This document shows, piece by piece, positions 20,594-35,222 of a stretch of 64,000 nucleotides of DNA. Source of the stretch: Macrostomum lignano (lineage: Eukaryota); contig NIVC01000255.1 in assembly GCA_002269645.1 (NCBI GenBank), forward strand, positions 310,001 to 374,000, read 5' to 3'. Numbering within the stretch: position 1 is the stretch's first letter; the number at the start of each line of letters is the position of its first letter. Under the pieces are notes generated by a model that worked only from the letters and a program-made list of their open reading frames with translations, had not been told where the DNA came from and did no database searches. The translations under genes and the position numbers were made by a program.

Positions 20594-21599
20594 TCCACTA
20601 TGACAAACATATACGGTACTCCATGTCAAAAATTAAAGAGCCATCATGTCAAACATAACAGAGCCACCATGGCGAACATTAAAGAGCCACCATGTCAGAC
20701 ATTAAAGAGCCACCATGTCGAACATTAAAGAGCCACCATGTCGAACATTAAAGAGCCACCATGTCGAACATTAAAGAGCCACCATGTCGAACATTAAAGA
20801 GCCACCATGTCAAACATTAAAGAGCCACCATTTCAAACATAAAAGAGCCACTATGTAAAACATATATGCGACTCTACATCAAACATATACGTGACTTCAT
20901 GTCGAACATTAAAAAGCCACCATGTGAAACATATATGTGACTCCATGTCGAACATTAAAGAGCCACCATGTCAAACATATAAGAGACTTTATTTCAAATA
21001 TAAAAAAGCTACCATGTAAAACATAAAAACGACAATTTTGAACATTAAAGAGCCACCATGTCGAACATAAAGGAGCCACCATGTCGAACATAGAAGAGCC
21101 ACTATGTTGAACATTAAAGAGCCACCATATCAAACATTAAAGAGCCACCATGTCGAACATAAAGGAGCCACCATGTCGAACATAAAAGAACCACCATTTA
21201 GAACATAAAAGAGCCACCATGTCTAATATAAAAGAGCCACCATGTCGAACATAAAAGAGCCACCATGTTTAAAATTAAAGAGCCAACCTGTAAAACATTA
21301 AAAAAATTCACCATGTCAAACATATAAGTGACTTCATTTCAAACATAAAAGAGCCACCATGTCAAACGTAAAAGTGAGCGAATTTTAAAGGAGCCACTAT
21401 AATGCTAAGGAAACTGTCGCACTAGCTACTTATTATCTGGTGGATGCTTGCTATCTGGGGGATGCTTGCTATCTGGGGATGCTTGCTATCTGGGGGATGC
21501 TTGCTATCTGGGGGATGCTTGCTATCTGGGGGATGCTTGCTATCTGGGGATGCTTGCTATTTGGGTAACCCGGTTGAAAAAAATACTGGATTAGCCCAT

Positions 21600-22360
21600 T
21601 GAAATTGGCCCGCTCATCGGCCACTTCGTGTCAGAAAAGCCCGCTCTAAAAGCCCGCTCATTTTTCCAAATCAACGAGTCTCTCAAATCCGCCCGTTCCA
21701 CGGCCCGCTTCTGGGCCCGCTGGCTGGCCCGCTCACTGGCCCGTTCTAAACCGGCCCGCTGGCTGGCCCGTTGTTTGGCCCGCTGGCTGGCCCGTTGGTT
21801 GGCCCGCTCACTGGCCCACTCATTGACCCGTTCTAAACCGGCCTGCTGGCTGGCCCGCTGATTGGCCCCCTCATTGGCCCGTTCTAAACCGGCCCGCTGG
21901 TTGGCCCGTTGGTTGGCCCGCTGATTGGCCCGTTCTTAACCGGCCCGCTGGTTGGCCCGTTGGTTGGCCCGCTCATTGGCCCACTCATTGACCCGTTGTA
22001 AACCGGCCTGCTGGCTGGCCCGCTCATTGGCCCGTTCTAAACCAGCCCGCTGGCTGGCCCGTTGGTTGGCCCGCTGGTTGGCCCGTTCTAAACCGGCCCG
22101 CTGGTTGGCCCGTTGGTTGGCCCGCTGGTTGGCCCGCTCACTGGCCCACTCATTGACCCGTTGTAAACCGGCCTGCTGGCTGGCCCGCTCATTGGCCCGT
22201 TCTAAACCAGCCCGCTCATTGGCCCGTTCTAAACCGGCCCGCTCATTGGCCCGTTCTAAACCGGCCCGCTAATTGGCCCGTTCTAAACCGGCCCGCTGGC
22301 TGTCCTGTTGGTTGGCCCGCTGGTTGGCCCGTTCTAAACCGGCCCTCTGGTTGGCCCGCT
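21600..22360. repeat. Left subterminal repeat array (TGGCCCGCT / TGGCCCGTTCTAAACCGGCCCGC units)
   Basis: Reverse complement of the array at 31182-32000. Confidence 0.92.
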
Positions 22361-22682
22361 GAACGAACAAAAAAAATAAGTAAAGAAGCAAAATAAGCAT
22401 GAGATTTCTAAGTCAGACCGATGAGCCGTACAATTAGCTTTTTTATAAAAACCGGGAATATACTTCATCGGATCTGGTAAAAACAAAGAGATGTTAAGGT
22501 TAAAATTGAATACTAGTATTTTTTCATGGTGGCACGAATAGCTAAAAGAGCTAATATAGCTAATAGAGCTAAAAGAGCTAATATATAAAAGAGCAACCCT
22601 AGCCTCAGAGTCTATTCTCAACCCAAAGTAATGTTTGTCAGCATAGTGAAAAATTGTCACCACAATCGAGGCCTAGTCTCTA

Positions 22683-24353
22683 CTACTCGCTTTCCTCTTC
22701 ATTTTCTGCGCAGGCGCCACTTTTCGCAGACGAACTCTCCCGATCCCGTACGGTCCTGGCTGTACGGCGGAAGACCTCGCCGAGTTCGGCGTCTGTGAAT
22801 AGTTTTTTGTCCTCCTCTGAGACCAGTTTACTGGCCAGGTAGGACCGTATGGCCGCCTTCTTGGAGCTATCCAGCTCAACCCGGTTGGCCGCTTTCTCTC
22901 CTTTCACCTGTCGACCAGCCCAAGATGCGGTTCGCAGGTCTTGCTCAGGGCACACAGCAAGTATGACTAGCCGAACGGCTCGTCTGCGAATCTTGTTATT
23001 GTTTGCGGCTTTTCGCATTTCAACTGCTGCGGCTTCCAATTTTGTCAGGGCCAACGGACAAACCGTGACACCGGGAAATGCAGCTATCAGCGGCACACGT
23101 TTCGACGACTGGTTGCCCATCATGGAGGTCGATATATTTGCGATTGCCGTCGCAATGGCGTGGCTCACAAATCCACTGGTAAGCTGCGATGACGTCGAGC
23201 CACTTGGCTCGGCATCGATGCCGATATCGGCAGCAGCTGATGACGACTCTCCGGGTGCAGTACTCGAACCAGCGACCAACGTTTCGTAGTCACTAATAGA
23301 GCGCACCAGACTTTCGAGGTGGCTGCATGATTCTGTAGTTCTACGTGCCACCTCGTTGGCCGACCGCGCCTGCGCCGTGACGAACCGTAGCGTCTCAAGT
23401 ATCTGAGAATTCGCATGCATGGAACTTGCAAGACGGGTGTCATACTTTTGCAGCACGTCATCTTTCTGTGCCAGTTCCTGTTTCAGCTGCTCATTCTCAG
23501 ACCGAATGGCCTCATTCTCAATCTTCAGGTTGGCTGCATCAGTTTCAGCAGCCCCCCGCTTGTCCGTCTCTTCTCGATTTGCCTCACGTAGGTCACGACA
23601 TTCGATGTCGAGGTTCCGGCAGCGCGGGCATCCGGCATCAGGGTGATTTATAACGGGTTGCACGCGCCTATAGGCGCCTGCAGAGCCCGACCCCATTAAA
23701 GTTGCCAATTTGGCCAGGTTGTCCCGGGCAGCGTAGGCGGACTTCCTATCCGGAAAAGGCCCGGCTGTCAGGAAAGCGTCGAAAGTTTTTGCACTCGGGC
23801 TATGGCCAGTCCGTACTTGTACTTTAACGCCGACTGTTCGTGTTACGGGGTCCGGGTCGACGATGCACTTTTGGTCGATGGCCATAACTTTGCCGGTGTT
23901 AGTGTACGTGAGCACCCACCAAATAGCTTTGTGGATGACCATGACACGGGGCGCCTTAGCCTTTGGTGGTCCACCGGCCCTATTGCGATGCCGCATCTCC
24001 TTTCTCGACTCTAGATCTGGCTCGCTCGATGAGTCAGATAGAGATTCGCGATGCCGATGCCTATCGGCATTGGCTTCGGCTTTCCGTTTTGTAGTAGAGC
24101 CGGTCGGCTCCGCGGACACGGCCGTGCTCATATCGGAGCCGATTAGCGCCGTTGAAGTGGCGTCGTGGGCTTTAGGGAGCGTCGTGGGCTCATCTCTGCC
24201 GTCGCCATTCAGCTCAGCAGGATTTTCCTGGACGTCAGCAGCTGCAGTTGTTAGGCCAGTATTGGCATCTTTATCTTTCCGCTTCTCTTTTTCGGCCCGA
24301 TTCTCGTGATCCCTCTTCTTATTCATTCTATCTGTCTTCTTTCCGTCTCCCAT
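22683..24353 (-). CDS. Transposon accessory protein: low-complexity N-terminus, small beta-rich domain, CxxC + coiled coil, C-terminal BEN-like DNA-binding domain
   Basis: The 581-codon ORF (to 24428) is intact. The likely ATG at 24353 follows acceptor TCTCATTGCAG|AATA. The C-terminus AVRLVILAVCPEQDLRTASWAG...RVELDSSKKAAIRSYL...LGEVFRRTARTVR fits the BEN pattern. Confidence 0.7.
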   Translation of the reverse strand: MGDGKKTDRMNKKRDHENRAEKEKRKDKDANTGLTTAAADVQENPAELNGDGRDEPTTLPKAHDATSTALIGSDMSTAVSAEPTGSTTKRKAEANADRHRHRESLSDSSSEPDLESRKEMRHRNRAGGPPKAKAPRVMVIHKAIWWVLTYTNTGKVMAIDQKCIVDPDPVTRTVGVKVQVRTGHSPSAKTFDAFLTAGPFPDRKSAYAARDNLAKLATLMGSGSAGAYRRVQPVINHPDAGCPRCRNLDIECRDLREANREETDKRGAAETDAANLKIENEAIRSENEQLKQELAQKDDVLQKYDTRLASSMHANSQILETLRFVTAQARSANEVARRTTESCSHLESLVRSISDYETLVAGSSTAPGESSSAAADIGIDAEPSGSTSSQLTSGFVSHAIATAIANISTSMMGNQSSKRVPLIAAFPGVTVCPLALTKLEAAAVEMRKAANNNKIRRRAVRLVILAVCPEQDLRTASWAGRQVKGEKAANRVELDSSKKAAIRSYLASKLVSEEDKKLFTDAELGEVFRRTARTVRDRESSSAKSGACAENEEESE

Positions 24354-24744
24354 TATTCTGCAATGAGAGCGGGAAAGGTTTCTTTCTAAATGCGGTTTCA
24401 TATGACATGCGTCATATGACGCAAGCATGCGTCAGTGTCATGCTAATGAAAGTAAGGAAGGATATTGAATTCCATAACGAAAAATGCAACGCCTGTGCAT
24501 CTTCTATGTGCAATCGACGCTGACAAGTCGACGCAAGTATACTTTAGCTATGAGACGTTGATGGCATGGAAGCTGGCAAGCTACTGCTGGGAGAAGCGCT
24601 ACTATAGTAGTACTCGCTACACTACTCATGACATTGAGCCGGCTGGCTCGACTAGAAGTATTTATATAAATAGATCTAGATCTAATAGAGTAGTTACAGT
24701 ACAATATTGTCAATTATTTAACAGTGACGTACAGCCTATGCTGC

Positions 24745-25560
24745 CTACAGCTTCTTATCCCGTGTGTTAGACGGCCCGGCGCTAGCACCCGTCAGTGGAC
24801 GCATGCGCCTCTTGCCTAACCTCATGGCCTCAAAGGGCGCTTCTGGCTGAGTGTCAGGCATTTCGATTTTAAAAAAGTTGGGGTCGCGCTTCTGCTGAGG
24901 CTGATTACTGCGGTGCCGCCCGTGCTCTTGCAGCCGTCTCTGCTTTGTACGAGGTGACAAATTCGAAAACCAGGCCTCACAGTCAGGGCAGCAGTGCGGG
25001 TCCAGTTCCTGCCGATCCGCCCGTTTTCGAACAACGCGTACGCAAGCGTAATTCTTTTGATTCGGCGGGTCAGGCATGCGGTTATACTCCGCGCGCAGTT
25101 TGTTCAAGTTCTCAGCCGGCTCGTAGTCTCGCGCCGCGGGCTGATCGTCACTGGCGACGTTCGCAGTCGAGCCAGCCGGCTCAATGTCGTTAAACAGAGA
25201 CGGCGAACCGAGCTGGGTCTCGGCGTTGTAGCGAAGCTGATCGTCGTTGGCGTCGTTCGCAGTCGAGCCAGCCGGCTCAATGTCGTCAAACAGAGACGGC
25301 GAACCGAGCTGGGTCTCGGCGTTGTAGCGAAGCTGATCGTCGTTGGCGTCGTTCGCAGTCGAGCCAGCCGGCTCAATGTCGTCAAACAGAGACGGCGAAC
25401 CGAGCTGGGTCTCGGCGTTGTAGCGAAGCTGATCGTCAGGCGTCGTTCGCAGTCGAACCAGCCGGTAACCGGTAACCGATCAGGTCGACAAGAGTCGGCG
25501 ACATAGTTCGCGCCACGTCTCGAAGGAGGTCATCCTCTAGGGCTCAGGTCGTTCGACATG
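24745..25560 (-). pseudogene. CtIP/Sae2/Ctp1 C-terminal-domain protein with three 32-aa N-terminal repeats; frameshift at ~25438
   Basis: Positions 25053-24847 encode NYACVRVVRKRADRQELDPHCCPDCE...HGRHR...PNFFKIEMPDTQ, which aligns without gaps to the recalled human CtIP C-terminus. The frame is open from ~25437 to 24745. A 2-nt loss relative to the repeat consensus disrupts the 5' part. Confidence 0.8.
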
Positions 25561-25908
25561 TCTGAAAAGCAAGTATATGTCGTCTGTTATGCACACGCAA
25601 GTTTGTCCGACACACATCTGAGCTTGGAGTATCAATACCATGCTGCTGGGCTGTGCAGTGGGAAATTGTTAACTATTTATTACTATTACGTTACTAGTAA
25701 GTAGAGACGCTTGACAAACTTGATTAGTGAACGAACGATGATTGACCTGATTGGCCTGTATACGCCACAAATCGTATATATATATATGTATATATGAGCA
25801 AAATAAGCAATATAAACTAAATAAGCAGTGCGAAAGCAATATAATCAATACAAAGGCAATGTAAGCAATATAAGCAGTATTGGCAATATGAGCAATATAA
25901 GCAATATG

Positions 25909-25967
25909 AGCAAAACACAGTTGAAGAAGGCATGCTGGAAAAGAGCAATTATGGCATATCCCGTCCC
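25909..25967 (-). promoter_or_regulatory. 59-bp intergenic module, copy 1 (identical to 27706-27764)
   Basis: Exact direct repeat 234 nt downstream of the 26201 stop. The minus strand contains TTGCTCTTTTCCAG, an acceptor-like sequence. Confidence 0.6.
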
Positions 25968-26003
25968 CTTTGAAATCGAGCCGACTGGCTCGATTTCAAA
26001 GGG
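25966..26003. other. Perfect 17-bp-arm hairpin CCCTTTGAAATCGAGCC-GACT-GGCTCGATTTCAAAGGG
   Basis: Direct inspection. Its core is the element-wide GAGCC-N4-GGCTC palindrome. Confidence 0.9.
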
Positions 26004-26200
26004 CCAATTTGTCCAATTTCTCCAAATTGCCGTGCTCTTTCTAAAACGTGGCGGTCTTTGTACGGTTTAAGCGGAATCTAATCAGATTCAATAAACTCTA
26101 TATTCTGTTATACTCTCTTAATTGTGGTGGGCAGAAACGACTAGTGATTGAAGCTGCGGCTAACTACACGTTCCGGAATTACTAACGTGGCCTACATTAA

Positions 26201-27379
26201 TTACTTAAACCGCACATAGGCCGCCCACGTCCCTACAATGGCGACGGCCAGAGTCATGTATAGGACATTCGATTTATGTCCTAAGTACACCAGCCGGTAC
26301 TCCTGGGCAGCTCGACCGCGTCGCCTTGACTTTTTCAGCACATTGACCCGATTTTGCACCGGTGGCGTGACACCGGCGGATCCGGCGTGCTCATTAACGG
26401 TGCTCACGGCTCGGTCGAAGATGGCCTGGGCGTCGAGCGACAACTCGGTCTTCGCGCCAGCCGGCGCGTCTACGATTCCGCTGTCTCTGAGGTGCGAATA
26501 CAACGTGCGGACTGCATTAGTCCAGCACGTTGTTTCGCATCCCCGGGACCACAGAAAGATAAAGACACAAACTAGTGTCAAGATGGCATTGCCCATGCTG
26601 TCCGAAAATAGTATGCTGTGTTCAGACTCATACTGCCGTAGTTTGTAAGAAGCAGCAGTCATGAACGTCTGCATATCTGTATGCCAGCAGTATGGCCAGT
26701 TTTTTCCATTCGCGTACAGCTCTCTGCACCGACCGCAAATGCCAGAGTAATTTCCCGTCGCGCCGAGGGTGCCTTCGGCCTGCTGAGCGGAATCGCTCAG
26801 AGGCTCGTTGTACAACGACATGTCGCGAAGCTGTTTGACTACTCCTGTGGCAGCAGACGCAGCTGGGACACAGGTCGAGCCGGTTGGCTCGACACGACCC
26901 GTCGCGCCGAGGGTGCCTTCGGCCTGCTGAGCGGAATCGCTCAGAGGCTCGTTGTACAACGACATGTCGCGAAGCTGTTTGACTACTCCTGTGGCAGCAG
27001 ACGCAGCTGGGACACAGGTCGAGCCGGTTGGCTCGACACGACCCGTCGCGCCGAGGGTGCCTTCGGCCTGCTGAGCGGAATCGCTCAGAGGCTCGTTGTA
27101 CAACGACATGTCGCGAAGCTGTTTGACTACTCCTGTGGCAGCAGACGCAGGAACACAGCTCGAGCCGACTGGCTCAACTGTAGCTCCGGCGTCGTCACTA
27201 CAGTCGTCGTCCCAGTTGCTGCAGGCGCGCGATTTAACTAGCCGTTGCTGCTCGGCATGGGCTGCGTGGATGTCATCCTCACAGTCGTCGCAGTGAGAGG
27301 AGCGACAAAAAAAACAATAGTCGGCGAACGCGAAGTATTCCCGCGAATTGCATTTGGGGCATGGTTGCTGGTCCGGCAT
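26201..27379 (-). CDS. 392-aa transposon accessory protein: N-terminal Cys/His Zn-finger, three 47-48-aa repeats, unknown C-terminal domain
   Basis: Intact ATG ORF with CPKC..CFFC..HCDDC...H..H, and 141-144-bp in-frame repeats at ~26760-27190. Confidence 0.7.
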   Translation of the reverse strand: MPDQQPCPKCNSREYFAFADYCFFCRSSHCDDCEDDIHAAHAEQQRLVKSRACSNWDDDCSDDAGATVEPVGSSCVPASAATGVVKQLRDMSLYNEPLSDSAQQAEGTLGATGRVEPTGSTCVPAASAATGVVKQLRDMSLYNEPLSDSAQQAEGTLGATGRVEPTGSTCVPAASAATGVVKQLRDMSLYNEPLSDSAQQAEGTLGATGNYSGICGRCRELYANGKNWPYCWHTDMQTFMTAASYKLRQYESEHSILFSDSMGNAILTLVCVFIFLWSRGCETTCWTNAVRTLYSHLRDSGIVDAPAGAKTELSLDAQAIFDRAVSTVNEHAGSAGVTPPVQNRVNVLKKSRRRGRAAQEYRLVYLGHKSNVLYMTLAVAIVGTWAAYVRFK

Positions 27380-27705
27380 TGTGATGTCTTAATCTTAATT
27401 TGTTTATTTGTCCTTAATTTGTACAAATTAATTTCTTTTGCTGGTACTTCTTTGTCAGTGGGTCGACTGAAATTAATGCGAAGTAGGTGCACGATTATTG
27501 GAACAAAAGGACAGCTGCGTACCGGTTGTAACCTACTATATTGTCAGGTAGAAATAAAGGCGTAAAGGAAGGCAACATATGGATATAGACGTCATGTGAC
27601 CGACGTTTGTTACTAAATATAAATATAATTTTTTATGACACCACATAGCAATGTGCAGTAGTAAGCAGTATAAGCAATATATATATTATATATAAAAGCA
27701 ATAAA

Positions 27706-27764
27706 AGCAAAACACAGTTGAAGAAGGCATGCTGGAAAAGAGCAATTATGGCATATCCCGTCCC
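27706..27764 (-). promoter_or_regulatory. 59-bp intergenic module, copy 2
   Basis: Identical to 25909-25967 and 230 nt downstream of the transposase stop. Confidence 0.6.
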
Positions 27765-27993
27765 GTTTGAGCGAGGGTGTCCTCTAGCCCTCACCCCTTG
27801 TTGTAAACTGTAGTCATAAGTTTTGAATGAACAGGTGACATTTCTACTCAATTTAAAAAGCTTTAGAACTTTCGAATGTTTACTTACTATAGTGATGTGA
27901 GTTCTAAGAAATTATATTGTTTTACCAGAAAGCCTGTGCAACGATTTTTCCTTCTTATTGGGACACCCTACGTACAATGAGTACATACAATTC

Positions 27994-30774
27994 TCACGCT
28001 GCGTAAGAAAACTGAATATGGGGGAGGAATGCTACATAGCGGTCGTTCACACAACACGTAGCGAGTACGTCGTTAGCAGGGATTTCGAAGTAGTATTTGT
28101 CAACTGCGCAAAATGGATTGGCACGCAGGCGCCGAACGTGTGCGACTGAGCATCCGCCGTGGTCCGGTTCGCCAGTCAAGCGGTACAACGGATGATTGTC
28201 CTCGTGCGGCTCCACAGTCAGAAGGCGGCGTAGGCGAACCCATGCGCAATTGTCCCGGAGTTGAATTTCCTCAATTCGTGCGAATTCAAACGGCTGACGA
28301 CAGTTAGGGATGAGGACAGTAACAAAGCACGAGGCGGCGCGCTGGTGGATCAGGCGAGGCAAGAATATTTCAATGCGTAGCCCGCTGGTCAGTACTGCTT
28401 TGCCATACCGTGTGTCACCGCCCGCCAATTGGCGGCGAATAGGATTGCGCAGTCGCACACCATCCGGCAGTCGAACCTCACCATTTGGTGGTCCCTCGCT
28501 GAAGATGTTGGGGAGTTGCAATTCGGCCATCATTTGCCTTCGCGCCAATTGGCGCTGTAGGAGGCCGGCAACTTCGGTGTCAACATTCCTGGAGCCGTGA
28601 ATTTTGGTGCGAAGATTCGCATGCGACGACTCAAACAAGCCCGCAGACATCCTCCACATTGGCCCGTATAAAGTTACGTACGATACAAAGTGCTCACAAA
28701 CTTGGTGTGCATTGTACGTAAGGGCCATGTTGGAGTACATCTGAGGCAGCTGACTGTAAAAGTAGTGCAGAAGCCGGCTGGCTTTCATCACTTCCATTAG
28801 AGGCGCTCCATCCAATGTAAGCCAGAACATGGCCGTGGACAGTAGCTGAAGGTGCCAGTAGTAGCGGTCGGGCAGGATGCCTTACATCACCATAGGGCCG
28901 TAGACGATTAACCATGCCTCAAGTTCGTGGCCCCGAAACATGCCGAATTCATGGAAACTTCGGGGAGCACGTTGATGAGACAGGGGTACGTGAATCCGCG
29001 AAGAGGCAAGGTCCACATCTGCACGTCGCGAAACTAGATTGGGGTTATGCGCGTGGTACATGTCTGGTTTCTTAGGATGAAACAGCTGTTTCAAAATCCA
29101 GTGAACGAGTCCAAGATAGCACTGATGAAGCAGACACGGTGGACACCCATGCATGTAGTCGAAACCGTTTAACTGGTCCAACACTGACACGCACATAACG
29201 CCCAGATAGTTGTCCTTGCCGACCGGGATGTTGTGCGCCAGTAGGCGCGTGTCTCGCAAGCTACGAGCGTGCGGTGTAATACAACCGACTGCGGTTGCCA
29301 GCGCAACCGCCTCTTCTTTGCCACTGACTGGGTACCGATTGGCACCCAATGATCTCTGCGTCTTCACATAGCAGTTGTCGCAGCCGAACTCTGCATTGTG
29401 ACGCTTTAGACCGACAACCTCAGCTCTCTGTGGGGCATCCAAGACGAATAGGTACGGGTGCAGTCGAAGAAGACCAGGCGCGTCGCCTTCAGTGCCACCA
29501 CCTGTGCTGTAGGTGATCCCGATAGACCGGAGCTCATTCAGCTCTCTAACAAGGCCGGGAAGGAAGGTGGATGTCTTGACTTTCGACTTTGCAGCCCAGA
29601 AACCACATACGACGATGAAACGCGATTTCATTGCTTCGTGTACTTCGTTGATACTCAAGTACACTGGGCACATTTCCATCAGCGCGTCTGCAAATACTGG
29701 AAAGCCGTCGATGTTCACAGTATACGACAGATCTTGCTTCAAGTGTAGCCGAACTGAACGCTTGAAATGCCGATACTCGTCGCAACTGGATACTGAGACA
29801 AAATTACGATCTTCAGATGACAAATCGACAGGGAAAGTTACGCTCTGTAGAAGCCGGCACTGTTCAATTAACTGTCTGATTTGCAATTTAAAGTCGGTGG
29901 TATAAAACTTGGATACGCCGGCCGGCGACAGTTCCTTGTTACAATAAGTGCAATTTTCACGGTTCTGAGCCTGTGCTGACGTGACCTCAGCACTACAGGA
30001 GGAACAGAACAGTCGGGGTGGCGATGTAAAGTCGTTCGCGAATGCCTGGACTGTTTTCCGTAGTAAATATACACTACCAGGCAGGTTGCTACCGACTGGC
30101 ACAGCTGCATGGAAGAGGCGAAGCAGGTCAGCTATGCCTTTCCTTGGCAGAGACTGGCGCTCGCTGAACAAATGCACATAGGCCGCAAACGAATCGTAGG
30201 TCAACGGAGAGTCTAGGAAAAGTGCGGCTCCATTTCTCCTACGCGGCTGCATATCCATAGCTTCTGGGTTATGGGTGGCTCCATTGCCAACACACGGTAC
30301 ATCCTCATCCTCTGGTGGGCGGTCATCTTCAGTGAAGTCCTCACAATCGTCGCACTGCTCGATGGCGTCCAGCGCCATTGGAGCGCCACTCCAATAGTCG
30401 TCATCTGGAGCTTCTTCGCCTGGTTCCTCAACGATAGATCTAGAAGATACGTCCTCATCGTCGTTGTCTGAATACTGCGAGCCGGTAGGCTCGACGACCA
30501 TGGGAGTCTGGACGCCACTGCTACATCCACCTGTTGCCAATGCTGGCTGCCAGCTGCTGCCAACACTGGCTACACTGTTGCTTGTTTGCGCGTCATGAGT
30601 GGTTGGTACGTCATGAGTGGTCCGAGTTGCAGTTAGTAAATGGCTCACTGAAGCTTCTGCTCGTGTCGGACGGGCTGTCGCCGCAACTGTCTGTCTGAGT
30701 GATTCTTTGAGTCGACTGAAGTGCCGTGCGATGGCAACTGACTTCTTGTCGAGCTCTTTTAGTCGTTCAAGTGA
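27994..30774 (-). pseudogene. EnSpm/CACTA-type DDE transposase (Transposase_21/Tnp2-like), ~925 codons, single in-frame TAA at 28882-28884
   Basis: Motifs NIDGFPVF, LDAPQRA...HNAEFGCDNC, CLLH (C/DxxH) QCYLGLV, RAPRS...GHELEAWL, TYNAHQ...YGPMW...FES. The two called ORFs are joined in frame by GILPDRYYWHLQLLSTA. The frame is open upstream to an acceptor at ~30774. Confidence 0.9.
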
Positions 30775-31181
30775 CTGAAAATAAAGAAATTGAATACCTG
30801 TGTGACTAGGAGAGAATCCGTACTAAAATTGTTAATTAACAAATACCATCATTCTACTATCAGTTTGAATCAGTTTGCTATCTTAGCCCAAGAGCCAACA
30901 AAGGGCGAAGCAATGGTTTCACACTAAACTGGGTGATATCTGAAGTACATACGTCACAACGTAGCGCGATATACAAATTGCTGTGGGCGTATAAGGCGAT
31001 AAAAATAAATAAAATTGACACACTCATTGTACATGTCATCATGAAATTTGTGTATGCACAGTTTATTGGACAGCATTAGTGCTCTACAAATCAAATAATT
31101 GCCCGAGCGCCAAGACACCGCAAAAGTTTACACGTACAAGTTTATACACCATTTGATAAGATTATCACGTTCACAACAAGT

Positions 31182-32000
31182 CAGCGGGCCGGTTTAGAAC
31201 GGGCCAGTGAGGGGGCCAACCAGCGGGCCAACCAGCGGGCCGGTTTAGAACGGGCCAACCAGCGGGCCAACCAGCGGGCCGGTTTAGAACGGGCCAACCA
31301 GCGGGCCAACCAGCGGGCCGGTTTAGAACGGGCCAACCAGCGGGCCAACCAGCGGGCCGGTTTAGAACGGGCCAACCAGCGGGCCAACCAGCGGGCCAAC
31401 TAGTGGGCCGAGCAGCGGGCCGGTTTAGATCGGGCCAGTGAGCGGGCCAACCAGCGGGCCGTGCAGCGGGCCGGTTTAGAACGGACCATTGAGCGGGCCA
31501 ACCAGCGGGCCAACCAGCGGGCCGGTTTAGAACGGGCCAGTGAGCGGGCCAACTAGTGGGCCGAGCAGCTGGCCGGTTTAGAACGGACCATTGAGCGGGC
31601 CAACCAGCGGGCCAACCAGCGGGCCGGTTTAGAACGGGCCAACCAGCGGGCCAGTGAGCGGGCCAACTAGTGGGCCGAGCAGCTGGCCGGTTTAGAACGG
31701 GCCATTGAGCGGGCCAACCAACGGGCCAACCAGCGGGCCGGTTTAGAACAGGCCAACCAGCGGGCCAACCAGTGGGCCGCGCAGCGGGCCGGTTTAGAAC
31801 GGGCCAGTGAGCGGGCCAACCAGCGGGCTAATCAGCGGGCCGATCTGCGGATCGGTTTCGAGCGGGCCATTAGCGGGCTAATCAGCGGGCTTCAGAGCAG
31901 GCCGGGTTTCAGCGGGCCAATTTGTTGTAAAAGGCCTGTAATACGGGCCGATTCGCTTCGGCCCGCTAATGGCCCGCTCAAAAGCCCACTGAGGCCCGCT
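31182..32000. repeat. Right subterminal repeat array (AGCGGGCCA / GCGGGCCGGTTTAGAACGGGCCA)
   Basis: Inverted relative to the left array. Confidence 0.92.
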
Positions 32001-32619
32001 AAGTTTTTCAACCGGGTAATGCTTGCCATCTGGGGGATGCTTGCTATCTGGGGGATGCTTGCTATCTGGGGGATGCTTGCTATCTGGGGGATGCTTGCTA
32101 TCTTGGGATGCTTGCTATTTGGGTGATGCTTGCTATCTGGGGGATGCTTACTATCTGGGGGATGCTTGCTATCTGGGGATGCTTGCTAGCTGGGGGTGCT
32201 TGCTATTTGGGTGATGCTTGCTATCTGGGGGATGCTTGCTATCTGGGGAATGCTTGCTTTTTTGGGTAATGCTTGCTATCTGGGGGACGCTTGCTATCTG
32301 GGGGATGCTTGCTATTTGGGTGATGCTTGCTATCTGGGGATGCTTGCTATCTGGGGGATGCTTGCAATCTGGGGGATGCTTGCAATCTGGGGGATGCTTG
32401 CTGTCTTGGGATGATTTCTTTTTGCATTGCACTTCATTTCAGTAGTTTGTCTATTTTCTTTGTGAAAGCTTTATTTGGCTATCTTCTTTTACTTGTAGAG
32501 AACAGAGATTCTATACAGATGTCCCCCAACGGGGGGCGAAGATTGCTAGTCAATATAGCTAAGTTGATGTAACTAACATTCTAAATATTTTTGCCCAAGA
32601 TCGCAGGATTTTTACTAGA

Positions 32620-35222
32620 GAGGAGAGATAAGACAGGACAGTGGAGAGCAGCCGATTAAAGCGCTCAGTCTCCTCATAAATTGCCCGCATTGGCTGGTTC
32701 TTAAGCGGGTGCAGCACGTCGCCGTTGGGGAAGCGCTTAAGACAGCCATGGTAGAAGCAGTCATGAAACTGGAGTGGAGCACTGTCATAGTCTCCCGGTC
32801 GAAACCGTCCACCTTACGGCCCATGGCGAAAGCCTCGCCGCCAGAGTCGGCTGTCAGCAGACTGCCGCCAAATTCGGTTGCATTCAAATGTGCAAGCCAG
32901 CACCGCGCATTGTACGACTGCTCATCTGACCGGCGGGAAATCACCCCAAGAGTGTTTATTGGGCTCCATAAACTTTTGTGAATACTGCCATGGCCAAGCC
33001 CGCAATGGTGTTGGATTGGGCAAATGCGTCCAGTCCGCAAATGTTCTTAATCAGGCGGGTGTATTTAAGACAGCGTTCCCGCAAAATTAGAGTTTCCTGC
33101 AGGCAGTAGTCCAGGTACTCCTTGTTGAAATTAAACACTTGGCCCTCCTGCTTGGCCAGCCAGTCTGCGATGGAGTCGTGCTGCTTATTCTTCTTCCCGC
33201 CGTACATTTCAATCGAGCAGTAAGGCCCCACGTAGCCCCAGTTTTGCGGCTGGTTAAACACATGCGGGAAATTTCCTTTGGTTAGTTGGGTGCCAAAACC
33301 AAGCGCCTTTGGGATTTGCGCCAGACCAATAGGGATGAATTTGAGGCTGTCCTTGAATAAAATCTTATTGCTCTTCATGTACATTAGGCGGCTATTTTGG
33401 AAGATCACTTGCGGCTTCTTCTTGGCCAGTCCGTTGAGTAGGGCTCCGAGCAGGAGGAATGCGTCATACGCAGAGCCATTGTGTGCAATAGCAATAGCGC
33501 CCTGCTTGAACATACTAGTCAGCCAGCAGTAAAAGGCGTCAATTCAGTGCGGCCCAACTGAAACAAACTCTCGCATCCCGCAAGCACAGTCATTGTGGGA
33601 GACAGGCAGTAAAATCTCGTGCCAGATCGCGCCCCGCAATGCAATTGGCTGAGCTGTGCAACCCCCTACACGCGCAACAGCGGGGCCTAGGGAAGAGTTT
33701 GGGACACGCCTCACACGGATGTGGCTGCTGTGACCAAGTGTACCCGGTGCTGCTTGTCAGAGTCAACGTACGTCTCGAAATCTTAGTAAACTCTTAGACT
33801 CGCTAGACTCTTAAGCTTTAGGCGGGGTGACAAAGCACTCGTGGGTGGCAGTTTCATCGTACTGCTTGCAGACTGGGCACTTAACGTGACCACACTGATT
33901 CTCTGGGGCCTGGCCTACTTTTAGCTCTTCTAGATAGCCACACGTGCCGCAAACGTAGACTGAATCACAGCGAGATCTACCCGCCTTATTCTTGCGCTTG
34001 TGATTTTCTAGACACTGAGCATTATAACAATTTAGCCCGCAATCATGGCATCTCACATATACGCGGTTAGCCTTGCAGTTGGCACCTGTAGTCTTGCATG
34101 TGCTGCAGGCGTCGGCGCACTTGTGCTCGGGTTTGGTGCAGTCGTAGGCCATCTCGCACTTGGAGCAGTAGTGCATGGAGCCGAAAAACGCTGGCAACCG
34201 GGTGACCAGATTGAAGTGCTGCTCAACCAGGTGTAGGTGCAGAATCTCAGTGCCGGGCAGGTTGAAGATGCACGTGTTGGCCTCCTCTGCCCTGTACACC
34301 CGTACACCAAAATCGTGGCCAGGATGCAAGCGGTTCAGGGCCAGGATCGCCTCGGGCAGTACGTCCACCCCGAAAGGGCCGGTCTGCGAGACAGTTTGAA
34401 GAGTCTGTGTAGGGGGGGGGGGTAAGGCAATTCTTTTAGTAATCCCTGATATGTATAAAAGTATATTAGTAATCCATAAAATGGTTCTTTTAGTAATCCC
34501 TGATACTATGCATATTAGTTAAAATTCCTATCCGAAAATGGTTCTTTTAGTATTCCATGATACTGTGTAAAAATTATTTGAAATTCTCTTCAGAGTATGA
34601 TTTTTTAGTAATCCTTATGGTAAAAATTCCATGAAAATCAGTGCATAACTTATCGTGTAGAGGCCTGCTTCAATTTGGAGCTCTGTAGCTAGATTAGTCT
34701 GGGCGGACGAATTGGCCTTGATTGTTTGCCACACTTTCTTGGTGATCGCCTTGGCCACAAGTTGGAGATAGGCGCAGCCCACGACCAGAGCTCGCAGCAG
34801 GCAGCTCTTGTCCGTGTTGGTGATGCGGACATAGTGGCGCGAGAAAGCATGGCGCTCCTCCAGATGCTTGTTCTCGAGGGCGCAGCCACCTCGAGGCACC
34901 CAGGCCTTGAGCAGACGGATGGAAAAGTTGCTCGTCAGGACAGTGGCATCCGACTGCACAATCTTGTCAATGTGCTTGAACAGCAATTCCGCCGTCATGC
35001 GGGCTGCACGCACCGGAGGAGTATGCGCCGCTTTAAGCATGTTGTCGTTCTCAAACTTTGCAGCCATAAAATCATCCCCCGCCAAATCCTGCTTAAACAC
35101 CTCGAGAATACTAGCGAATGTCTCGCGTAAATCACTGTGTCGTCTAACTTCACCACATATTCAACGCCCTTTGCCCTAAACTTTGGCAGCTCCCGCTGGT
35201 TATCCAGCCGGGCCGTAAAACC
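32620..35222 (-). pseudogene. polB: Polinton/Maverick protein-primed DNA polymerase B, N-terminal, Zn-finger and exonuclease part; fragmented and 3'-truncated
   Basis: KIVQS...VPRGG...ITNTDKSCLLRALVV; Cys-rich cluster YCSKC...HKC..C..C; ExoI DFETY (~33780); ExoII AHNGSAYD; FKDSL..P..L..IPK..KGNFPHVFN..N..YVGPY; ExoIII-like YCLQET; WLAHL...GE...VDGFD. Several frameshifts are present. Confidence 0.88.
34413..34654. other. AT-rich insertion within pPolB, with internal repeats and flanked by GTGTAG direct repeats
   Basis: GTGTAG at 34407-12 and 34655-60; internal repeats of TTCTTTTAGTAATCCCTGAT. Confidence 0.5.

Follow-up and report, generated by a model that had tools for sequence, protein, structure and literature searches.

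Dispersed short palindromes in the genes of a Macrostomum lignano CACTA transposon: candidate tags for family-specific self-recognition

The window analyzed here is a stretch of 64,000 nucleotides (nt) from Macrostomum lignano (GenBank assembly GCA_002269645.1, contig NIVC01000255.1, forward-strand positions 310,001 to 374,000), and it holds a full-length CACTA/EnSpm-type DNA transposon of 10.4 kb. The element encodes four proteins: a transposase, an unknown protein (open reading frame [ORF] 2), a protein with a CtIP/SAE2 domain (ORF3), and a BEN-like protein (ORF4). Within its internal region a short palindrome recurs at 17 independent sites, 15 coding and 2 intergenic, which are evenly dispersed over all four genes at about 2 per kb. 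We tentatively read these palindromes as DNA-level, family-specific self-recognition tags, for which a dimer of the element's own ORF4 would be the candidate binder. On the comparisons described below, we consider this reading plausible but short of probable.

Palindrome core, arms, and reading frames

A first-pass annotation of the window, made from the sequence alone, had listed 11 exact matches to GAGCC-N4-GGCTC in the element. All 11 were recovered at the same positions, against a mean of 0.04 in shuffled sequence (0 of 100 shuffles reached 11), and the rest of the window held no further exact match, as had been claimed. The two matches described as intergenic, 24636 and 25978, do lie between genes. 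Collapsing the tandem copies leaves 8 sequence contexts rather than the 7 independent sites reported earlier, and of the two near-matches the one at 28771 is AAGCC-N4-GGCTT, as described, whereas that at 22968 is TAGCC-N4-GGCTC, with one mismatch. The genome-wide count that had been proposed as a check gave 889 matches in 764 Mb (about 1 per 860 kb), which is the background level; the excess is therefore local, with an enrichment of the exact 14-mer inside the element of roughly 900-fold. The reversed pattern counted as a genome-wide control (572 matches) carries an extra CpG and is a poor control. Two GAGCC-N4-GGCTC variants about 430 bp apart recur on many contigs (C11, C37, C42, C88, and others), and one GCGCC-N4-GGCGC variant recurs widely; these probably derive from other high-copy repeats.

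The motif as first defined proved too narrow, the wider core being GCC-N4-GGC. When such cores were listed without conditioning on their arms, the internal region contained 20 of them, or 17 after removal of three tandem copies, where about 3.6 are expected by chance. Arms reach at least 4 bp at 20/20 of these sites and at least 5 bp at 18/20, and the wider set includes GCGCC/GGCGC (four sites), CCGCC/GGCGG, and ATGCC/GGCAT. The spacer length is specific: with a spacer of 4 nt, 15/17 cores have at least two extra pairs, compared with 2/39 for the ten other spacers (0 to 10) together. The spacer consensus, D-R-Y-H, is two-fold symmetric, with R-Y at the center in 15/17 sites, giving a family consensus center of CC-D-R-Y-H-GG.

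The arms match each other although their sequence varies. The first base outside the core is A/T at 10 sites, C/G at 6, and T/A at 1, and it is complementary at 17/17 sites versus 7.8 expected from permuted half-sites (p 5e-5). The second base out is complementary at 15/17 (9.5 expected) and the third at 6/17 (6.1 expected). Among 155 GCC-N4-GGC cores in 528 kb of other DNA, the next base pairs in 31%. Genome-wide, the hetero-arm form GAGCC-N4-GGCGC (1589 matches) outnumbers both symmetric forms (889 for GAGCC-N4-GGCTC and 1108 for GCGCC-N4-GGCGC), yet hetero-arm sites account for 0/12 in the element versus 44% genome-wide (p 9e-4).

The palindrome had also been described as always read as EPxGS in all four proteins. 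This holds for the nine coding exact matches, read on the minus (sense) strand, but 7 of the 15 independent coding sites lie in other frames, and the near-matches read R-A-V-R-L (22968) and K-A-S-R-L (28771). The 15 sites divide 8/4/3 among the frames (p 0.25 against an even distribution). Six of the seven independent coding sites that start with GAGCC share one frame, and the GA-type sites lie in linkers rich in E, P, S, and G. Its palindromic symmetry means that the motif spells EPxGS on the plus strand too, at each of the 11 exact matches.

Synonymous recoding of the transposase and ORF4 produced a mean of 0.62 sites and a maximum of 4 in 2000 runs, versus 9 observed; the exact 14-mer alone, a weaker test, gave 3 observed versus 0.52, with a maximum of 3. 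We also compared the element with a sister lineage (C13, C1546, C557, C2235, and C2582) of about 70 to 75% DNA identity, all copies of which are degenerate. This lineage keeps three homologous sites: EPVGS, in the same four codons; TRLLA; and, in the BEN region, GAGCC-ATTC-GGCTC read as R-A-I-R-L. At the three retained sites 13/14 codons are identical in the sister lineage versus 0.37 to 0.54 elsewhere (hand tally; binomial p 4e-4, conditional on retention), so that synonymous positions, whose state in homologous elements had been suggested as a check, are frozen where a site is retained. The kept synonymous codons, the excess over recoding, the use of all frames, and the occurrence of both orientations support the DNA-level role that the first-pass annotation had proposed. 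An origin of the sites by insertion of miniature inverted-repeat transposable elements was rejected, as alignment of the coding sequences shows the sites in frame and free of indels.

Other CACTA families and the weighing of explanations

We screened 38 CACTA loci of this genome (26 + 12, representing about 28 to 30 families, with several near-duplicates) for any core-by-spacer excess of palindromes, using spacers of 0 to 25; null maxima were 3 to 5. Three of the 38 loci were positive: the window element (14 after repeat masking), C1620 (12; GTCA-N-TGAC), and C1602 (8+7; GATC-centered). The excess was absent from the other 35/38. Arms covaried in all three families (17/17 versus 7.8, 11/12 versus 4.8, and 11/11 versus 2.8; p <=2e-4). 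In C1620 the arms are up to 9 bp long, some spacers measure 4 nt rather than 3, and 10/11 sites lie in one frame (V-x-D), another frame being barred by TGA. C1602 has 17 GATC-centered sites (background, 9/1200) with arms of 4 to 8 bp, several of unrelated sequence; one of its 8-bp stems is kept perfectly in 3/4 relatives while the loop differs. Several families show a mild general hairpin excess, and host DNA shows no comparable arm symmetry.

A single origin of the trait was rejected: on the transposase tree (28 rows) the three lineages form no clade, and 3 changes are required to account for them. In this tree C1546 and C13 were scored positive only for keeping homologous sites, and C1620 is a long branch. 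A shared reader gene was likewise rejected. Relatives of SAE2 and ORF2 occur in palindrome-free families, with SAE2 ORFs in seven palindrome-free loci among the surveyed CACTA loci, and among the three positive families the additional ORFs show no profile similarity (probability <=0.5%).

Under the explanation that we favor, putative binding by ORF4 would mark all copies of the family for regulation or for escape from silencing, as VANC and TnpA do in plants. Both of these act through family-specific, density-dependent target motifs (VANC, PMC5735166; TnpA, bioRxiv 10.64898/2026.08.24.746577; available portions of both reports). BEN homodimers bind CCAATTGG palindromes (PMC4281564, available portion), and two of the element's sites (28542 and 28422) contain exactly this octamer. 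The matched arms would be explained by symmetric birth, new sites arising by fold-back template switching or by copying of an existing site; template switching makes and homogenizes inverted repeats (PMC8604942 and PMC8794818, available portions). Selection may then hold the inner 14 bp while the outer flanks decay, and EPxGS would arise because that frame suits disordered linkers. Site 29915, where 7 clustered differences from the sister lineage create the perfect 12-mer, and the arms of 8 and 17 bp elsewhere fit recent births.

Several results weigh against recognition by an ORF4 dimer. A rigid duplex-binding dimer needs no matched arms, yet the element has no hetero-arm site, and the symmetry stops abruptly after two positions (17/17, 15/17, 6/17). 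The free arms around GATC in C1602 and the 4-nt spacers in C1620 fit pairing better. The BEN-like domain was found in at least 22 of the 26 first-surveyed loci and palindromes in 3/38, so that BEN does not predict them; it is not diagnostic because it is near-universal among the surveyed CACTA loci. TnpA-type proteins bind at the termini, but a position weight matrix (PWM) test showed no enrichment of internal half-sites in those of the element itself. Of seven sites comparable with the sister lineage, three are kept whole, one is a near-match (C557), and three are absent; sites therefore turn over. In yeast the template-switch signal is weak for 7-bp arms (PMC8604942, available portion), longer than most arms of the element, which measure 5 bp. 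A hairpin reading, in DNA or in RNA, is kept alive by symmetry that ends abruptly, arms that are free in C1602, and a BEN-like domain that is near-universal.

If the hairpin were one of DNA, the sites would fold into mini-hairpins where the DNA is single-stranded or cruciform (in intermediates of replication, resection, or transposition) and be read by an element-encoded protein, the loop-proximal stem giving family identity and the outer pairs needing only to pair. Arm covariation in all three families, compared with 31% in the 155 background cores, speaks for this, as do the variable-sequence arms around GATC in C1602, the 8-bp stem kept there with a changed loop, and local folding, which predicted hairpins on both strands (mean pairing 0.85 to 0.87, without a shuffled control). 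Extrusion of 5-bp stems from duplex DNA, however, is unlikely. Comparison of the lineages revealed no clear compensatory double change (two in C2948 are of CpG type), the three families have no reader in common, and SAE2 ORFs occur in palindrome-free families; we regard this explanation as unlikely. Arm covariation across sites within the element would also suit RNA stem-loops in its transcripts, their closing stem conserved and their outer pairs variable, through which an element or host protein controls stability, export, or small-RNA processing. Every site lies inside an ORF or just 3' of one, RNA folding predicted hairpins at 17/17 sites in sense versus 12/17 in antisense, and near-sites with one internal wobble, in three families, carry G.U on the sense strand in about 5/6 cases (~5 versus 1; not significant). 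Against RNA stem-loops, which we hold to be quite unlikely, stand a strand-symmetric loop consensus with sites in both orientations, sense-strand G.U pairs that are rarer than A.C beyond the perfect arms (12 versus 27), and a search of Rfam that returned only one chance-level match. The covariation was seen across sites, not between lineages.

A neutral by-product is also conceivable, if template-switch hot spots or copying of a founder palindrome keep making symmetric sites that persist where the protein tolerates them. The GA-type sites share flanks and spacers, two being tandem-amplified and one (24636) being the site of the ORF3 repeat copied, over 24 bp, in inverted orientation; the mild hairpin excess in several families and the turnover of over half of the comparable sites point the same way. 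This account leaves unexplained the one favored core and spacer per family and the synonymous-base identity in the sister lineage despite its divergence, as well as host DNA without such symmetry, and we judge it very unlikely. Operator, mini-hairpin, and recombination or cleavage site had all been offered as roles at first pass; the former two are still in play, but the last is not supported. Under it the sites would drive internal deletions, for instance as hairpins that CtIP/MRN opens, in keeping with the encoded SAE2/CtIP domain. At site 30479 exactly the 4-nt spacer was lost in C16 and C3783 but not in C317 (2/3 subfamily copies; probably one event), and two full-length copies carry a 70-bp deletion that stops at the border of site 25978, with the outer arm gone and the 14-bp core intact. 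Both events, however, show 2 to 4 nt of microhomology, and breakpoints are not clustered at sites: 1/19 in the collected list (two ends per event) falls within 5 nt of a core versus 1.0 expected (5.5%). A SAE2 ORF was detected in neither C1620 nor C1602, whereas seven palindrome-free loci have one. Such a role is thus highly improbable. The first-pass annotation had further inferred an added protein-level constraint and noted that EPxGS resembles the USP7-binding class. A reading in which EPxGS is selected for USP7 docking in each of the four proteins, with a palindrome that is incidental or dual-coded at the DNA level, we find barely credible. It can draw on the nine EPxGS readings in low-complexity linkers, on the frame shared by six of the seven independent GAGCC-starting sites, and on EPVGS kept in the sister transposase. 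But no EPxGS is written in any codons other than those of the palindrome (chance 0.195 each, 6e-5 for six), the same text stands on the antisense strand, the exact match in the sister BEN region reads RAIRL, and the frame bias of C1620 is stronger with an unrelated motif. The P/A-x-x-S pattern is weakly specific, matching 28 times in the four proteins. Because the sites use all three frames and the sister lineage reads an exact site as R-A-I-R-L, EPxGS is, on sequence grounds, a by-product of the GA-type palindrome, and the USP7 idea is not supported. Given the six sites in the same frame, EPxGS may later have come into use as a docking motif.

On a wider view, animal CACTA transposons would repeatedly have evolved a family-specific mini-hairpin barcode in their own coding sequence. 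A protein encoded by the element, possibly with captured repair domains (CtIP/SAE2, HROB), would read it as folded structure in RNA or single-stranded DNA, so that a family recognizes, protects, or repairs its own copies. We offer this as speculation and think it rather unlikely.

The transposon, its proteins, and its surroundings

CACTA/EnSpm (CMC) elements have short terminal inverted repeats (TIRs) beginning CCC or CACT, target-site duplications (TSDs) of 2 to 3 bp, and a DDE transposase marked by the strings C(2)C, [ML]H, and H(3-4)H. The window element agrees in TIR start, TSD size, subterminal arrays, and DDE-type strings. Its TIRs are CCCGGTTGAAAAA at both ends, with termini CCCGG...CCGGG, and TIRs with a 3-bp TSD were found in 9/9 element copies with both ends recovered. 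It belongs to the CACTA/EnSpm superfamily and is a young transposon. Copies elsewhere in the genome are 98 to 100% identical, several internal-deletion derivatives exist, and an older subfamily is 89 to 96% identical. Four sequence runs over the element (contigs, type guessed) had as their only joints genomic deletion variants. Hand-tuned degenerate words had tied the internal palindrome of each positive family to that family's own terminal repeats; this link was rejected when an unbiased PWM test failed to show it (6 versus 6.2, 1 versus 0.7, and 0 versus 0.3 in shuffled sequence).

The older subfamily (L005, L061, L062) is non-autonomous: ORF3 is retained, whereas ORF2, the greater part of ORF4, and a 1.2-kb portion of the transposase are missing, and 46 bp are inverted at window 24440-24485. 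A host gene cluster of repeated occurrence adjoins a sister-lineage derivative in three contigs (L078, L080, L082), with ORFs that we take to be ankyrin, Mab-21/cGAS-like, and caspase-like. The insertion target of the window element is a host satellite of ~17-bp units (window 21400-21568 and 32017-32430), very deep in the sequence runs examined, and a second tandem array of ~22-bp units (21050-21400) adjoins it on the left. Polinton-like fragments at 32956-35100 include a protein-primed DNA polymerase B (PF03175, E 4e-13) split over several frames.

The transposase frame is open for 942 amino acids (aa) in six other copies. It carries DDE/CACTA-type strings at aa 370, 461, 480, 563, 706, and 729 of an intact copy (alignment), and its nearest Atlas clusters carry Transposase_21 (PF02992; scores 0.96 to 0.98), without a direct Pfam match. 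ORF2 has distant relatives in two other CACTA families of the same genome; in length-limited searches none was found outside the Macrostomum genome, and two profile matches, to repeat proteins, look spurious. The SAE2/CtIP C terminus of ORF3 (24748-25107) passes the cut-off for PF08573 (E 6e-6). The 96-bp repeat of ORF3 has 4 to 5 units in other copies, and ORF3 of the window copy has 23-nt and 2-nt deletions close to its 5' end. ORF4 is linked to Atlas BEN clusters (0.94) and distantly matches the BEN structures of NAC1 (E 0.013) and Bsg25A (E 0.49) by profile; ORF4 alone has no PF10523 match, and 1/9 aligned relatives scanned passes that cut-off. Length-limited searches found no ORF4 relatives outside the Macrostomum genome, and no related loci were found among metagenome or viral contigs. 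Structure prediction without alignments was unusable (mean predicted local distance difference test scores of 42 and 48), and a fold search gave no match at E <0.001.

Further observations concern the element and its relatives. A divergent BEN-like domain closes the last ORF in nearly every CACTA family sampled (alignment of 23 sequences), and nested palindromes with 6- to 9-bp arms overlap the ORF4 start (24400-24430). A 110-bp cassette occurs twice (84 to 87% alike), at 27661-27770 and 25861-25973, upstream of ORF2 and ORF3 and each time directly past a hairpin; the cassettes hold a pyrimidine tract-AG-C-ATG, which could be a (trans-)splice acceptor. Captured DNA-repair domains are found in other CACTA elements: SAE2/CtIP in seven other surveyed loci (including L012, L047, L035, L058, L029, and L050) and an HROB oligonucleotide-binding fold in C1602 (L040:4247-4912; PF15072, E 4e-9). 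In palindrome-free C1674 (L043), C356 (L031), C312 (L047/L048), and C73 (L034), a short word that is not a palindrome is locally clustered (GGAATCA, AAGGCAGA, ATAGGGA); the clusters of C1674 and C356 sit between genes, nearer the VANC pattern. A 676-aa ORF of C2475 (L054:2851-4878, minus) has a weak OST-HTH/LOTUS match (E 0.0085, below the cut-off), a domain linked to germline small-RNA biology.

Table 1. Features of the transposon and its palindromes (window coordinates)
Feature	Position	Strand	Remarks
Full-length CACTA/EnSpm-type DNA transposon	21569..32016	-	Inserted in host satellite; TIRs and 3-bp TSD
Left TSD, TAA	21566..21568	+	
Right TSD, TAA	32017..32019	+	
Left TIR, CCCGG start	21569..21581		
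Right TIR	32004..32016		
Subterminal repeat array, GGCCCGC-based	21685..22361		Inverted relative to other end; motif unlike internal palindromes
Second subterminal repeat array	31182..31869		
Transposase frame	27994..30822	-	One premature stop at 28882-28884 in window copy
ORF2, unknown protein	26201..27379	-	Cys/His-rich N terminus, 144-bp tandem repeat, helical C-terminal domain
ORF3	24745..25560	-	96-bp tandem repeat, C-terminal SAE2/CtIP domain (PF08573)
ORF4	22683..24428	-	Likely coiled coil; C-terminal BEN-like domain (~22782-22970)
GA-type, arm 6, transposase N terminus, EPTGS	30479..30492		Kept in sister lineage
Arm 4 around N4 (perfect 12-mer), transposase, S-P-A-G	29915..29928		Absent in sister lineage
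GC-type, T-R-L-L-A	29235..29248		Kept in sister C1546
AA/TT-type, K-A-S-R-L	28771..28784		
GC-type, CCAATTGG center, Q-R-Q-L-A	28542..28555		
CC/GG-type, CCAATTGG center, R-R-Q-L-A	28422..28435		
GA-type, ORF2, EPVGS	27162..27175		
GA-type, arm 8, ORF2 tandem copy, EPTGS	27021..27034		
GA-type, arm 8, ORF2 tandem copy, EPTGS	26877..26890		
GC-type, arm 6, ORF2, A-P-A-G-A	26454..26467		
Intergenic palindrome, 17-bp arms	25966..26003		Core 25978-25991
Three GA-type palindromes, ORF3 96-bp repeat, EPAGS	25169..25374		Sites 25169, 25265, 25361
Intergenic palindrome	24636..24649		Inverted copy of ORF3 repeat site
GA-type, ORF4, EPTGS	24097..24110		
AT/AT-type, ORF4, N-A-D-R-H	24057..24070		
GC-type, ORF4, G-A-Y-R-R	23664..23677		
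GA-type, arm 6, ORF4, EPSGS	23197..23210		
Arm 4, start of BEN-like domain, R-A-V-R-L	22968..22981		Perfect GAGCC-N4-GGCTC in sister lineage

Relation to known systems

The literature searched, which covered few subscription journals and no supplements, contained no account of a CACTA/EnSpm element with BEN, SAE2, or internal palindromes; Repbase-type entries could hold BEN or SAE2 cargo. Plant transposons are known to recognize their own copies in a sequence-specific way (VANC, TnpA), and an animal case of this form was not found in the same literature. The three lineages, with three palindromes each beside its own BEN-like protein, provide candidate protein-site pairs together with about 25 negative-control families. 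If pairing of the arms is required, selection would here be acting on very short hairpins inside protein-coding DNA, which would be unusual. The EPxGS readings also carry a caution, since a peptide motif that recurs across transposon proteins can be the shadow of a DNA palindrome.

HIP1 of cyanobacteria is an invariant octamer palindrome that occurs genome-wide and is over-represented in coding sequence, in several frames. The palindromes described here resemble it in lying in coding sequence in several frames, but they are confined to one transposon family and have variable paired arms. The docking motif of the USP7 TRAF domain is P/A/E-x-x-S; EPxGS fits it and lies in disordered linkers, whereas the frozen codons, the other frames, and the non-coding sites are unlike a docking motif. 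The BEN-solo factors Insv, Bsg25A, and Elba2 of Drosophila bind as homodimers to the short palindrome CCAATTGG, which two sites of the element contain; in the available part of that report (PMC4281564) they are host transcription factors with one consensus and without arm covariation, and ORF4 is only distantly similar to such proteins (E 0.013 to 0.49).

The plant systems come closest. VANC motifs of Arabidopsis VANDAL (Mutator) elements are, like the palindromes, family-specific, dense, amplified by tandem repeats, divergent between families, and sporadic elsewhere, but as described in the available part of the report (PMC5735166) they are non-palindromic, clustered in the same orientation, and mainly non-coding, whereas the palindromes are coding at 15/17 sites, dispersed, and have covarying arms. 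TnpA belongs to a plant Spm/CACTA element of the same superfamily and shares with the present case family-specific motifs, subterminal arrays, and an accessory gene that accompanies the transposase (bioRxiv 10.64898/2026.08.24.746577, available portion). It binds termini, however, while the palindromes are internal and, by the PWM test, unlike the element's own subterminal repeats, and the accessory protein here is BEN-like. Clustering in non-coding or terminal DNA, which defines the plant motifs, is lacking, and the palindromes are therefore not classed as VANC or TnpA motifs; those target motifs are nevertheless what they most resemble.

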